A stretch of DNA of 63,543 bases, filler included, from Reclinomonas americana ATCC 50394 (GCA_048213135.1; 4 parts of 2 records of this genome joined end to end with filler, not necessarily neighbours in it); one strand, 5' to 3'. Numbered from the whole stretch's first letter, positions 11,923 to 61,900 are shown. Made by a program: numbers and translations. Notes: generated by a model not told the origin, from the sequence alone.

Positions 11923-13933
11923 ATGGCTGCTCGTTCCAAGTTTGCTGAGACGCCTCTGGCGCCCCCCGACCCCATCCTCGGCGTCACCCTCGCCTTCCGG
12001 GTACGTGTGCCCCTCTCTGTTTCTTTGCATATGTGCCTGTTGTCGCGCGTTTGTTGCCTTTTGTGTGTGTGTGTGTGTGACATGGGGGCGATGAGACAAC
12101 TCACAAGCACGCGTTGTCAACTTGTCACCTCTTCTTCTCTCCCTCCCTCTTGTCTCTCGCTGTGCTCATCACTCGACTCCGCTGTCTGTGTGTGTGCGCG
12201 CGCGTGTGTGTGTCTCTCTGTCTCTCGTTAAGAGTGTGGCGCATGCCTTTCAACGGTCAAAATAACACTCACGAGCCACACACACAGGCCGACCCGCACC
12301 CCGACAAGGTCAACCTCGGTGTGGGCGCGTACCGCACGGAGGAGGGCGAGCCCTACCCGCTGCCCGTCGTGCAAAAGGTCGAGTAACATCGTCTCTCTCT
12401 CCCTCCCTCTCTCTGCACTCTCTGTCTTATCTGAGCTTTGCAGGTGGAGTCGGAGCTGGCGGCTGCTCACCTCGATCACGAGTACTTGCCGATCGACGGT
12501 CTCGCCACCTTTACCAGTCGCTCTGCGGCTGTGGTGCTCGGCGCCGACTCGCGTGCTCTGGCCGAGAAGCGAGTTGCGTGCATGCATGCAAGCAGTGGCA
12601 AGGAAGAATTGTCAAATGTGTGTGTGCTGATGATCTCTTCGTGTGTGTGCAGGTGTGTGCGTGCCAGTCGCTGAGTGGCACGGGTGCGCTGCGTCTGGCT
12701 GGCGAGTTCCTGTTCCAGTTCCTGCCGCGCGGCACCAAGTGCTACATTAGCGATCCGACATGGGGTGTGTCTCGATGTCTTGTGGCGATTCACGTTCCTT
12801 CTTTTCACCCCCACCACCACCACAGGCAACCACGTCAAGATCTTTGGCGACTCGGGCTTTGAGGTGCTGCGCTACCGCTACTTTGACAAGCGCACGTCGG
12901 GCTTGGACTTTGGTGGCCTGACGGAGGATCTGCGAGTGCGTTTTTTTTTTGCCTTGATTCAGCTGCAGTTGTCTCCACACCGCTCACCACATTCTCTCTC
13001 TCTTTCACTCGCCAGAACATGCCGGAGGGCAGTGTGGTGGTGCTGCACACGTGCGCGCACAACCCGACTGGTGTCGATCCGACCAAGGAGGAGTGGAGCG
13101 CGATCTGCGACATTGTGCAGGAGCGCCACTTGTTCCCGATCTTTGACACTGCCTACCAGGTGAGTCCACCCTGCACGTGTGTGTACATGTTACTTCTGCA
13201 GTTGCTAAAGCGCCTCGTTGATCGAATCCAGGGCTTTGCCTCGGGCGATCTCGACGAGGACGCATACTCGGTGCGCCTATTTGTGGAGCGCGGTGTGGAG
13301 CTCTTTGTGACGCAGAGCTACGCCAAGAACTTTGGCCTGTACGGTGCGCAGTGATCGCTCGCGTTCCCTCCTTTTTTTCCGTCAGCACCTGTCTCATTTC
13401 AAGTGCTACAGGCGAGCGCATTGGTGCTGTGGTCGCGGTGTTGTCGGATCCCGACGCTTGCGCACGCACGCTGTCACAGCTCAAGCTGGTCGCTCGTGCC
13501 ATGTACTCCAACCCGCCGATGCACGGCGCGCGCATTGTGGCGGAGGTTCTCGGCAACCCCGAGTACGTCGAGGAGTGGAAGGGCGAGCTGCGCATCATGT
13601 CTGGTCGCATCCACCAGATGCGTGAGCAGCTGCGCGGCGAGCTGGAGCGCATCGGCTGCCCGGGCACGTGGAACCACATCACCGACCAGATTGGCATGTT
13701 CTCCTTTACTGGCCTGACTCGTTGCGTTGTCGTTTTGTGTTATTGCTCTCTCTCTCTACCGGGAATGTGTGCTCAACTGCATGGCAAAAACAGCGCCTCA
13801 AGTGCAGCACATGCGCGAGAAGTGGCACATTTACATGACCGGTGACGGCCGCATCAGCATGGCCGGCCTCACCACCAGGAACGTGCCGTACATGGCGTCG
13901 GCGATGAAGGACGCCATCCAGACACACCCATAA
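11923..13933 (+). CDS. GOT1: Aspartate aminotransferase (class I PLP enzyme, probably cytosolic), 9 exons
   Basis: Spliced motifs [77 protein letters not shown] (PLP lysine), [25 protein letters not shown]. No presequence. Confidence 0.96.
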
Positions 13934-14232
13934 AGTCAGTGAGAGAAGGAACAGGAGGGGGGAAAACGAGAGAGCAGCCGCTAGCGTTCTCAGCGCACTC
14001 CGGGTGTGGTGTGTTTGGTTGGTATGGGATGAAAAAACAACGATGCAGTAAACCTGACAGAGAAAACGTGCACGCGATTAGAGAGAGAGTGTTGTCCATG
14101 TGTGTGTGCATCATCATCATCGTACACTAAAGCGAAAGCCGCCACAACCGGGTCGGAAACAAAGAGAGAGAAAAGTGAATGAAGAAGAGTCGAGCGTCGC
14201 CGCGCTCTTGCTGCTGGTCGTCTGCTTGCCGC

Positions 14233-58900: not shown

Positions 58901-61900
58901 GGACTACCGAACTGCGTCGACAGTGCTGCCGCGTTTGATTCGCATGTGTACGGACAGCTCCGAGCTCGACGTCTTCAAACGAGAAGGTGCGCTTGCCTAC
59001 TGCTGTTGTAGGAAAGAGATTGGTGGGTGTTGACTCGGCTGGTCTCAGGTGCCCCAATTCGCTCACGGCAGATTCTGTTTCGCGAGTGTGGAGTTTCGTT
59101 GTCGGTCATCGCTGTGCGCTCTGCTAGTTGGTGCTGACCGATTGCGATAGATGTACGCGTTCCTGGCACAACTGGCCGCGGCCATCACAAACTCGCGTGA
59201 TGTGGAGGCTCGTGGCGAGGCCGGCAGTGTGGTCACGGATACGCTGCGACTTGTCTTCCGGCTCATGAAGCAGATGAGCAAGCAGTACCCGCTCAATCTC
59301 TCGCTATTCCAGCGTGACCTGCCGCTCCTGCTCGAGTTCTTTGGACGCGATGTCGGCGCCGAGGCCGCCATCATGGAGCTGTTGCGTCCCACAAAGCGAA
59401 GCAGCAATCGTATCCGCGTGCAATGTTCTGACACCACCCCGCCCTCTGCTGTTTCACAGTTTCTCGAGCAACAGCCACAGCCTCGTGCGCCAGATCGACT
59501 ACAAGTACATTCAGTTCTTCATCGATTTGCCTCGTCGGCGGGGCTTCACATTTGAGTTTCGTGTATGTGCGTTGCTGGCATCGTCGCCGCTCATGACTAA
59601 CGATGTGAGTCTGTAAAGGCACTTGCCGTTCCTCATCGAGCTGTGCTCCACGGACGAACCAGTTCGCCGAAACCAGGTGCGTACCCGATCATAGACAGCG
59701 AGCAGCGAGGATGGTGGTGGATTGACGCGTTGTTCCTCGTCGTGCAGGAGTACATTCTCGAGCACTTGGTGATGCCGGATCGCCCGTACGTGATCCTGAC
59801 GCAGATGCGCGGCGACACGGTGTATCTGGTGGCCGATCTTGACGGCTCTCATTTCGAGTCACGTATTGTGGATGTGGCGTGGCCTGGTTGGGCGCCGCCA
59901 CCCATGCGACCAGATGCCACTGCGTCGGGTGAAGCTCTGGCGAACTACGAGCAAGCGCGTGCGAGTTTTGAGCGATCCAGACTGCACGCCGAGTTCTACC
60001 TGTTGCAAATCAACTTGTTCTCCGAGCTGTGCGCAGTTACGTACCCTCTCCTCCTGTGAGGTGCATTATGTTCCTCTCTCCCTCTTACTCACTCTCTGGG
60101 CGATGCAGGGCCGCAATCCACGCGCACAGCAGATCATTTCGCGACTGCTGCCAATCAACGTTGCTGTTGTCGGGTGTGTCACTCATCCGTCATGCGGCTG
60201 ACGTAAAGGACATGTTGCTTAACGGTGGCATGTGCGCGCACAGGCTGATGGAACCGGGACTGCCGAGTCTCGTACGCGCCGCGTTTGACCGCTTGCTGTT
60301 GCATCTGTACGTGGATCGCAACCCGTTCAACAAGATCCAGCTCGTCGAAACGCTGCGGGTCTGTGTCCTCACAAGGTGCTCTCGTGCCTCTCCTTCTCGG
60401 ACTCATCGTATTGTCGCTGGCAGGTGTGGGCCGACATTCCCCTGGAGCCGCAGTTCCATCGCAGTGAGACGTACGAACTGCAGCAGATTCGCCATCACGT
60501 GTCTTCCGGTTTCTCGGTGCTGCCCATCATGAACGACATGCTGAACGCCATTATCTCGTTGCTGGTGAGTCTTGTGTTGCCGCCGTTCACGCCACGCGCT
60601 GCCAGATGGTTGTGGTTCTGAACAAAGCCACACAGCGCTGGAAAGGCGCACTGCGAATGCGCTGGCGCGATCCCAACTTTACCAACTTTCATGTCAACAC
60701 CGTTGCGTGCAGTCTCGTCTGTTGCACACCCTCCGAGTACAGCTCTGAACTCCTTTCTGCAGATGCTACAGCTGCTCATGGCGATGTTGGAGGAAGGGTT
60801 CGTGACACACCGCGGCTACTTGGTGCTGCTCAACGAGACGCTGTGGGACCTGGTGGATGGACGCACTGACGACTACCTCGGTTTATTTCATCTTGTTCGT
60901 CATATCGCGGTGGTGCGCGGCCACTGAGAAGCCCTTGTCATGACAGGTCAACCGGATTCCTTCCGGTACAGTGCGAACGAGAACAACTTGATCATCATGG
61001 TTTGTGCGGCGTAGCGGTCAGCCAGTGTTGCTGCCACACGCATCTCACATGTGAGCAGGAGGTCAAGTGGCGCGCGTGCCGCATCTTGGATCTGCTGCTG
61101 GACATTCAGGTGAACCATCGTGTGGCCAAGTTCCTCTCCTATTTCCGTGGTGGCAATCCGGTCGAGATGGAGCGCATGCTCGGTCGCACGTACATTGTGG
61201 AGGTCAACGACCAGACACTGCCCATTCTCTCCGACCTGATGAAGTACGATTCGGCGCCGCTCAACGCCGTCGCGTCGCGTCTGCTGTTCCGCGTCTTCCA
61301 GTGCGTCCACCTTGTCTCTGCCTCCGTTTTCTTGCAACTCAAGCGTTTCTGGCAGACAACGAATGGAAATGTTTTCGACACTGGGACGCACCACGCTGCT
61401 CGTGTCGCACTCCCTTGTCGAAGCATTCGTGCGCCTGCGCACGGTGTGGGACGAGCTGCGTGTGACACTGGTGGAGCATCCCGACTGGCCGTCGCGGACA
61501 AACATTGTGCAGCAGATTGTGCGCCTGCTGCGCACCCTGCGACACGGTGCGCCCATTCTTATCGGGTTGCCGCACTTTATTGTCTCCGCATTCTCACTTC
61601 TAGGCTCGCTGCCGCGCAGAGATGCAAACCTCGAAGCAGTTGCAGGTGCTGGCCCGCTCATTGTCGTTGCATGACACACTGATCAATGTGCTGAAAGCAC
61701 CAATGTTGCGACTGTTCACATCCCTCGCTCCCCTCTCTTTCCACTTTCCTCACTTTGTCGTTCCTCGCAGTCGCAATCAGCGGCCTGTGCCCGGCACACC
61801 GCTCTTTGAGGCATTCGCCCTGATCTACCAGATCCTCCAGCTGGTGTGTCATTCGCTGCAACGAAGAACGCCTGTTGTATTCGCTACTCACTGTGTCGCG

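Follow-up and report, generated by a model that had tools for sequence, protein, structure and literature searches.

Two classes of 5' splice site that differ in the last exon base in DNA of Reclinomonas americana, and a possible shifted register of U1 snRNA

The DNA analysed here is a stretch of 63,543 nucleotides from Reclinomonas americana ATCC 50394 (GCA_048213135.1; four parts of two records joined with filler), referred to below as the window, and the subject is the 5' splice sites (donors) of the short introns predicted in it. Two classes of donor were found, which share the normal cleavage site and a common intron architecture and differ in the last base of the exon (position −1). Donors of the form GTTNCG make up 36 of the 134 predicted introns (about 27%), and one of the 36 follows G, as against 75 of the 98 remaining donors. 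A contingency test of the −1 base against donor class, proposed in an earlier sequence-only reading of this DNA, was run on the 134 predicted introns and gave a Fisher p value of 1.2e-15; the association is real within the window, well beyond chance. The GTTNCG class would be explained if U1 small nuclear RNA (snRNA) paired with it one base out of register, with the corollary of a G at position 5 of U1, and this explanation is given a probability of about 45%. Both the register and the G in place of U, be it in the host U1 or in a U1 variant, are predictions.

Donor classes and the last exon base

Introns were predicted with a home-made generalised hidden Markov model (HMM), which combined codon log-odds with GT...AG introns of 35–600 nt in all three phases and used no exon bases as splice signal in either of two passes. 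In pass 1 the donor was GT alone; pass 2 added a model trained on the short pass-1 introns, with terms for length, the branch motif CTNAY, the acceptor from −15 to −3 and the donor from +3 to +9. Pass 1 gave 105 introns, the commonest donor hexamer being GTTGCG (15 introns, none after G). Pass 2 gave 24 genes with 133 introns, 29 of them with GTTGCG, in agreement with the roughly 30 such donors counted earlier from the sequence. One in-frame intron of the aspartate aminotransferase (AAT) gene was added manually, giving the total of 134. This intron (13160–13231, plus strand; 72 nt) was read through by the gene finder because it is in frame and free of stop codons; by homology it is spliced, as CAG/GTGAGT...CCAG/GGC, where the slash marks the predicted cut. 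Errors in the gene models were found chiefly at donors with weak motifs, and imperfections remain in the DJ-1 gene and in 8 of the 29 introns of the IP3-receptor (IP3R) gene. The 134 predicted introns had a median length of about 70 nt, the branch motif CTNAY and a 3' CAG. The density of stop codons downstream of each GT hexamer was uninformative as an annotation-free intron signal in this GC-rich DNA.

Donors with GT at +5 and +6 (GTNNGT) followed G in 49 of 57 cases, whereas GTTNNGT donors did so once in 30 (Fisher p = 1e-14). The GTTNCG class was made up of 23 GTTGCGT, six GTTGCG followed by A, C or G, four GTTTCG and three GTTACG, and was preceded by A in 14, T in 12, C in 9 and G in 1. 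C at +5 and G at +6 are set by definition in this class, in which G at +4 was found in 29 of 36; among GTTNNGT donors, C at +5 was found in 28 of 30. The contrast at −1 was present in each intron phase and persisted when one of two paralogous genes was dropped (p = 7e-14). Among junctions checked by homology (those of AAT, and those of IP3R that ranked first), G stood at −1 in 0/9 GTTNCG junctions and 18/20 others (p = 5.5e-6). The earlier statements that GTTGCG donors follow A, C or T and rarely G, and that many unshifted donors follow G, thus both held. The range originally given for the class, 12573–61711, does contain such donors, but the class was also found upstream of it, at 2729–11164.

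Donors of the form GTTYGT (GTTTGT and GTTCGT), which have GT at +5 and +6, served as a control. Ten of the 11 followed G (p = 2e-8 against GTTNCG), and T at +3 is therefore not the cause of the loss of G. The eleventh, at 61967 (TCT/GTTTGT), was outscored on homology by TGG/GTTCGT at 61985.

The raw hexamer GTTGCG occurred 88 times on both strands, preceded by G in 7, as against 71.6 ± 10.0 times in shuffled sequence; 88 was reached in 5 of 100 shuffles, and so the bare hexamer is not enriched. Within predicted gene spans the heptamer GTTGCGT was found 24 times in sense orientation, 23 of these being donors, and three times in antisense. G preceded 14–16% of non-donor GTT and 7 of 59 non-donor GTTGCG, and relative to this background G at −1 of the GTTNCG class was only mildly depleted (binomial p = 0.016–0.027). 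The main effect is that the canonical preference for G (86%) is missing, rather than that G is depleted.

The one GTTNCG donor predicted after G was TTG/GTTACGT at 24886–24950 (plus strand). The exception named in the sequence-only reading was a different one, ATGG/GTTGCG at 9449 (plus strand), which may be coding sequence that is simply read through, or the start of a possible 140-nt intron (9449–9588) right after a start codon. A frame of 69 codons (MGCVVCC...) opened by the ATG at 9445 passes straight across 9449, and joining 9449 to the acceptor at 9588 would likewise keep an open frame. The region 9445–9889 (plus strand) is probably a gene missed by the finder; besides the frame that starts at 9445, another frame is open from 9589 up to a good donor at 9818 (CAG/GTGTGC), with a branch motif and an acceptor near 9889.

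Further copies of GTTGCGT after T, A or C were seen where no gene was called, at 10786, 15578, 22473, 29120, 31415, 32304 and 55128 on the minus strand and at 19019 and 47790 on the plus strand, and some of these may be donors of unannotated genes. Among other donors, the commonest with C at +6 (five GTGCGC, five GTGAGC and three GTACGC; for example at 13344, 56974, 58987, 61547 and 62367, plus strand) had G at −1 in 12 of 13 cases. A predicted donor of the intron at 45513–45599 (minus strand), GCC/GTTTGCGTG, resembles a GCGT tail moved by two bases and has no G at −1.

Support for the junctions and intron type

Junctions of the AAT gene were scored with an HMM of 62 homologues, each against 10–23 alternatives. 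All eight predicted junctions had the top score, with ties from one-base slides where the protein is unchanged. For the two GTTGCG junctions of this gene, one-base slides with non-GT-AG boundaries scored equal or at most 0.7 bits lower: the intron at 12573–12652 (plus strand, CGA/GTTGCGT) tied with two such slides above 15 other alternatives, and that at 13721–13793 (plus strand, CTC/GTTGCGT) was the best of 23 alternatives, with 622.2 bits against 621.8 and 621.5 for the slides. One-base-slid boundaries outside the GT-AG rule were rejected on these equal or lower scores.

For the IP3R gene the HMM was built from 16 distant homologues, aligned with MAFFT, and junctions were scored against frame-compatible GT-AG alternatives within 24 nt. 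Of 29 predicted junctions 21 ranked first, including all seven with GTTNCG donors, two of which led by only about 1 bit. These seven, all on the plus strand, were GGA/GTTGCGG at 58775–58847 (first of 2; 57.7 against 44.9 bits), GGA/GTTTCGT at 59093–59150 (first of 3), GCT/GTTGCGT at 59381–59459 (first of 4), TGA/GTTTCGT at 59556–59618 (first of 3, narrowly, 42.0 against 41.2), GCA/GTTACGT at 60036–60108 (first of 3; 67.0 against 44.8), ACC/GTTGCGT at 60702–60762 (first of 8) and AAT/GTTGCGA at 61705–61770 (first of 3, narrowly, 56.1 against 55.0). The earlier claim that cleavage still occurs 5' of the GT is borne out by the homologue HMMs, with two of two shifted-type junctions in AAT and seven of seven in IP3R best or tied.

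Two tandem paralogous genes on the plus strand (2056–4957 and 6406–9124) shared all eight introns in alignment column and phase, and the donor class was the same at all eight, five shifted-type and three canonical. The shifted-type pairs were TCT/GTTGCGT at 2729–2802 with TTT/GTTGCGT at 6988–7075, CTC/GTTGCGT at 3125–3205 with CTC/GTTGCGT at 7374–7453, TCA/GTTTCGT at 3409–3496 with CCA/GTTACGA at 7657–7717, ACT/GTTGCGT at 3763–3850 with GCT/GTTGCGT at 7945–8035, and ATT/GTTGCGT at 4265–4336 with GTT/GTTGCGT at 8446–8511. Donor motif aside, the bodies of the paired introns were only about 50% identical by gapped global alignment. The heptamer was kept all the same, and is therefore maintained by selection.

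The other introns of the class were called by the gene finder only. On the plus strand, in addition to 24886, these were AGA/GTTGCGC at 19890–19956, GCA/GTTGCGA at 23625–23692, CCA/GTTTCGC at 24218–24281, CTC/GTTGCGT at 28081–28150, AGA/GTTGCGT at 34917–34985, GGC/GTTGCGT at 51121–51189 and ACC/GTTGCGT at 51435–51502. On the minus strand they were CAC/GTTGCGT at 11065–11164, ACA/GTTGCGT at 23165–23233 (in the DJ-1 family gene, whose model is doubtful in parts), ACA/GTTGCGC at 42595–42674, CCT/GTTGCGT at 43517–43590, TCT/GTTGCGC at 43853–43925, TCA/GTTGCGT at 44185–44253, GCT/GTTGCGT at 52479–52548 (in the Yip1 gene), GCC/GTTGCGT at 53343–53414 and CCT/GTTGCGT at 53582–53649.

All 36 GTTNCG introns begin with GT and end with AG, as the finder required, and retaining them would break the frame or meet a stop in 31. 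The motif CTNAY was present within 50 nt of the 3' end in 26 of 30 GTTNNGT introns and 44 of 57 canonical ones, and 26 of the 30 GTTNNGT introns ended in CAG. Shifted-type and canonical introns were alike in median length (72 and 70 nt), branch motifs, distance from branch to 3' end, CAG acceptor and GC content, and both donor classes were intermixed within single genes. Judged on these predicted features, the GTTNCG introns are of the U2-type GT-AG kind.

Three other origins were considered and rejected. U12-type (minor) introns have a 5' site consensus of RTATCCTT and the branch consensus TCCTTAAC; the donors here were GTTNCG, and the branch motifs CTCAC, CTGAC and CTAAC were as in the other introns. 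A family derived from introners or transposons was rejected because, when the 134 introns were compared all against all by blastn, nothing beyond low-complexity matches such as CT and GT was returned. Origin by boundary sliding, in which G at +1 mutates to T and G at −1 is reused, was rejected by reasoning, since the frame would shift and an AG acceptor cannot compensate by one base.

Pairing with U1 snRNA

The predicted short U2-type introns have two kinds of 5' splice site, G/GTNNGT and H/GTTGCGT (more loosely GTTNCG). In the usual kind the conserved contacts are the exon-final G and the intron G+5 and T+6. The second kind is cut at the normal place, with the G-T tail one base deeper (+6 and +7), T+3 obligatory and the exon-final base free. 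The proposal, taken as the most likely mechanism, is that U1 binds this kind one base out of register (+1 shift), with G+1 replacing the exon G−1 opposite C9, U+2 unpaired opposite C8 and U+3 paired with A7; the tail would then pair as in G/GUGCGU, and U6 and U5 would later choose the GU for cleavage. The host U1, or one U1 variant, would have G instead of U at position 5 (ACGUAC-like). Such a G would explain the near-invariant C+5, and the shifted helix would then have five contiguous pairs.

On the exon side, the −1 profile of the shifted class was like that of canonical −2 (chi-square p = 0.36) and unlike that of canonical −1 (p = 5e-13). Donors in which the NCG tail is moved by one base had T at +3 in 36 of 38 cases. 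The shifted register needs this T because U+3 would pair with A7, and a bulge has no such need. The two exceptions were GAG/GTCGCGT, which follows G, and GGT/GTGCCGT, which does not; AAG/GTCGAGT, with a displaced tail and no C at +5, follows G as well. In the shifted register an A at −1 would face U10 and pair with it; such an A was found at 6 of the 8 sites without T+7 and at 8 of 28 sites with T+7 (p = 0.036), in a test on a small sample that was chosen after the data had been seen, a point to be counted with those against the proposal given below.

Pairing energies were calculated with the standard U1 5' end, AUACUUACCUG (PMC4856993, Table 2), which may not be that of the host. Canonical donors in the canonical register had a mean of −6.87 kcal/mol, and by unconstrained duplex they were separated from decoy GTs with an area under the curve (AUC) of 0.91. 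When ACUUAC in U1 was replaced by ACGUAC, the means for the GTTNCG class were −4.93 kcal/mol in the shifted, −3.47 in the bulged and −0.07 in the canonical register; the shifted register was best at 35 of 36 sites, and canonical donors improved from −6.87 to −8.46 kcal/mol. Among 16 variants at U1 positions 5 and 6, GU gave the best combined discrimination, with an AUC of 0.66 for the GTTNCG class. Canonical donors had C or T at +4 in 42 of 57 cases and G there in two, a pattern expected if the facing base of U1 is G.

Several observations weigh against the shifted register or limit its support. With the standard U1, the GTTNCG means were −0.07 (canonical), −0.62 (shifted) and −0.32 kcal/mol (bulged), and by unconstrained duplex the class was worse than 800 decoy GTs of the same genes (AUC 0.255). 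Even with G at U1 position 5, discrimination from decoys was modest (AUC 0.62–0.66). GTGAGT, the best fit to the standard U1, is still frequent (13 donors), and GTTGAGT, which would pair better with the standard U1, was seen once. The shifted class is not a plain slide of the canonical one: GC stood at +4 and +5 in 23 of 30 GTTNNGT donors, against 14 of 57 canonical donors with GC at +3 and +4 (p = 4e-6), and the −2 profile of the shifted class differed from canonical −3 (p = 0.039), so that the one-base slide is imperfect on the exon side too. An Rfam search of the window gave no matches at gathering scores, and no U1 was found there. Thecamonas trahens prefers C at +4 and has a standard U1, as described in bioRxiv 10.1101/2022.06.08.495308, and C at +4 is therefore no proof of a changed U1. 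All introns are predictions; homologues were used to check nine of the 36 shifted-type junctions, in some cases with the narrow scores given above, and for 10 more (five pairs) the support is agreement between paralogues.

The shifted register put forward in the sequence-only reading thus fared unevenly. The exon-side profile, T+3 and the A−1 compensation speak for it; pairing to the standard U1 is near nil, and the GC core is not explained. In the comparison of three registers suggested at the same time, the shifted one was lowest, at a negligible energy with the standard U1, and was clear only with ACGUAC, which is hypothetical here. These results suggest that a shift of register agrees with the exon-side data, and that it would require U1 to be non-standard (G at position 5) or some additional recogniser to take part. 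As a mechanism it is partly supported: nothing else considered here reads the exon-side evidence as well, yet it is incomplete.

Alternative explanations

A dedicated recogniser, either a second U1-like snRNA with the 5' end ACGCAAC or a protein or other RNA reading UUGCG, with the standard U1 taking G/GUNNGU, is unlikely, though several observations suit it. The heptamer is much more constrained than the canonical site (GTTGCGT in 23 of 36), 23 of its 24 sense copies in gene spans are donors, and pairing with the standard U1 is not possible. Altered 5' ends have been described in U1 variants of the diplonemid Sulcionema specki (PMC12621601) and of Physarum (bioRxiv 10.1101/2022.06.08.495308), and PMC3561869 and PMC10870369 deal with variant human U1 genes. 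A dedicated recogniser nevertheless explains neither the likeness of −1 to canonical −2 nor why A−1 is more frequent where T+7 is missing, and it requires a larger change in U1 (UU to GCA) than the single base needed by the shifted register.

A bulged register is improbable. In it G+1–C8 and U+2–A7 would keep their normal pairs, U+3 (or U+2) would be extruded as a bulge, and GCGU would pair like the tail of GUGCGU. The motif is indeed GUGCGU plus one U, such a register has been proven in human cells, where 68 sites are predicted to use it (PMC4856993), and the bulged energies lie near the shifted ones with either U1 (−0.32 against −0.62 with the standard form, −3.47 against −4.93 with ACGUAC). 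Bulging, however, leaves C9 free and would favour G at −1, which was found in 1 of 36; placing G there in silico made bulged pairing more stable (−3.34 instead of −0.46 kcal/mol). A bulge could take any base, yet T stood at +3 in 36 of 38 displaced-tail donors; the donors with C+3, GAG/GTCGCGT and AAG/GTCGAGT, follow G, as expected if only those are bulged. Under either U1, the bulged register was best at 1 of 36 sites.

It is also quite improbable that the short introns are defined with little or no help from U1, by the branch site, the 3' splice site and U6/U5, with GTTGCGT selected for later U6 or catalytic steps. Such definition would suit very short introns (median about 70 nt), mostly with CTNAY within 50 nt of a CAG acceptor, and the nil pairing predicted with the standard U1. 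It predicts neither the −1 profile nor the obligatory T+3, and pairing with the U6 ACAGA box would also loop out the extra base.

An artefact, with the class and its −1 bias arising from self-training of the gene finder or from composition (GGTT being rare), is very improbable: the pass-2 donor model was trained on its own output, and the 14–16% of G before any GTT makes the in-class depletion marginal, but pass 1 had no donor model and already gave 15 GTTGCG donors with none after G, exon bases were never a splice signal, the homologue HMMs and the paralogue pair confirm junctions independently, GTTGCGT is asymmetric between strands (24:3), intron retention is as disruptive as noted above (31/36), and composition cannot yield 77–86% G in the other donor classes.

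Other features of the window

The window (63.5 kb) is intron-rich, about 58% G+C, contains 16 runs of N and encodes recognisable eukaryotic proteins, split into short exons. Pfam was run on the 150 longest raw open reading frames (ORFs) of the window and gave few matches; long ORFs are frequent by chance in this DNA. The matches included AAT at 12.2–13.9 kb (plus strand), a DJ-1 family protein at 22.6–23.1 kb (minus), Yip1 at 51.9–52.5 kb (minus) and the N-terminus of an IP3/ryanodine receptor at 57.0–58.2 kb (plus). A search with an AAT exon gave no match above 65% identity, a search with a Yip1 exon gave four weak matches, and a metagenome scan gave 80 loci, each at no more than 62% identity.

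The products of the tandem paralogues (2056–4957 and 6406–9124) are 57% identical, surface-like, rich in Ala, Ser and Thr and about 670–685 amino acids long, and their N-terminus resembles a signal peptide by eye; with one exon as query, no homologue was found. The gene predicted at 40633–46148 (minus strand) has 21 introns and encodes about 1340 amino acids with extreme Arg, Asp and Glu content and EP/PE-type repeats. It gave a weak GBP_C match at an N-terminal coiled-coil, and a weak Trypan_PARP match that looks like low complexity. The IP3-receptor-like gene (56173–62890, plus strand) has at least 29 introns within its first approximately 1586 codons and exits the window or enters an N gap at 62897. 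The N gaps at 16119–16218, 21828–21927 and 49856–49955 are each a pair of runs of exactly 44 N with 12 bases between the two, which resembles an assembly artefact pattern.

Discussion

In human 5' splice sites the exon and intron sides compensate for one another, and sites lacking G−1 hold more intronic information. The donors described here differ in that the motif is displaced and is not a better canonical one, G−1 being absent from 8 of 57 canonical and 35 of 36 displaced donors.

A +1 shifted U1 register is known from rare human 5' splice sites (Roca and Krainer 2009, as described in PMC4856993), and the validated non-canonical registers together are put at 1.5% of human sites in that account. 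The donors of the window resemble those sites in that the GU would be cut normally while U1 pairs displaced by one base, with G+1 facing C9 and canonical complementarity poor. They differ in abundance and strictness: the human sites are rare and represented by a GUCAAGU-like test site, whereas here the class amounts to about 27% of predicted introns, with a strict GUUGCGU, an obligatory U+3 and negligible pairing with the standard U1. With the bulge +2/+3 register (Roca et al. 2012, as described in PMC4856993) the class has in common the GU-U-tail form, the tail matching canonical +3 to +6. Sites of that kind should keep G at −1 and tolerate any base in the bulge, unlike the present ones, with G−1 in 1 of 36 and T+3 in 36 of 38.

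Co-evolution of U1 and donors is described for Archamoebae, with ACAAAC and GUUUGU in Entamoeba and ACGUAC and GUGCGC in Mastigamoeba balamuthi (bioRxiv 10.1101/2022.06.08.495308). These organisms provide a precedent for a changed U1 hexamer, and ACGUAC is the very form with which the shifted register would function in the window. They have a single class in the canonical register, as presented there, whereas the window has a second, shifted class without G−1, and its donors are GTGCGT, GTGAGT and GTTGCGT and not GUGCGC. Diplonemids, which are among the top AAT matches by E-value, also differ, with donors (G)/GTATG and rare branch motifs in the account of PMC12621601. In full-text literature searches, no abundant GTTGCGT donor class without G−1 was found among the top matches listed; the listed matches to the motif were primers and unrelated sequences.

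It is possible, though we hold it to be doubtful, that a non-canonical U1 register has become fixed in this lineage as a major way of recognising 5' splice sites. About a quarter of its introns would then be read in that register, through a changed U1 (G at position 5) or a second U1-like snRNA dedicated to GUUGCGU. If true, it would be the first organism with two 5' splice-site grammars of differing exon needs in one major spliceosome, and a further example of co-evolution between U1 and splice sites. It would provide natural data at genome scale on the choice of register, for which the human cases are rare sites proven singly, and a test of the uncoupling between U1 binding and the later choice of cleavage site. 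Gene finders trained on G/GTRAGT-like donors will mis-annotate such genomes.

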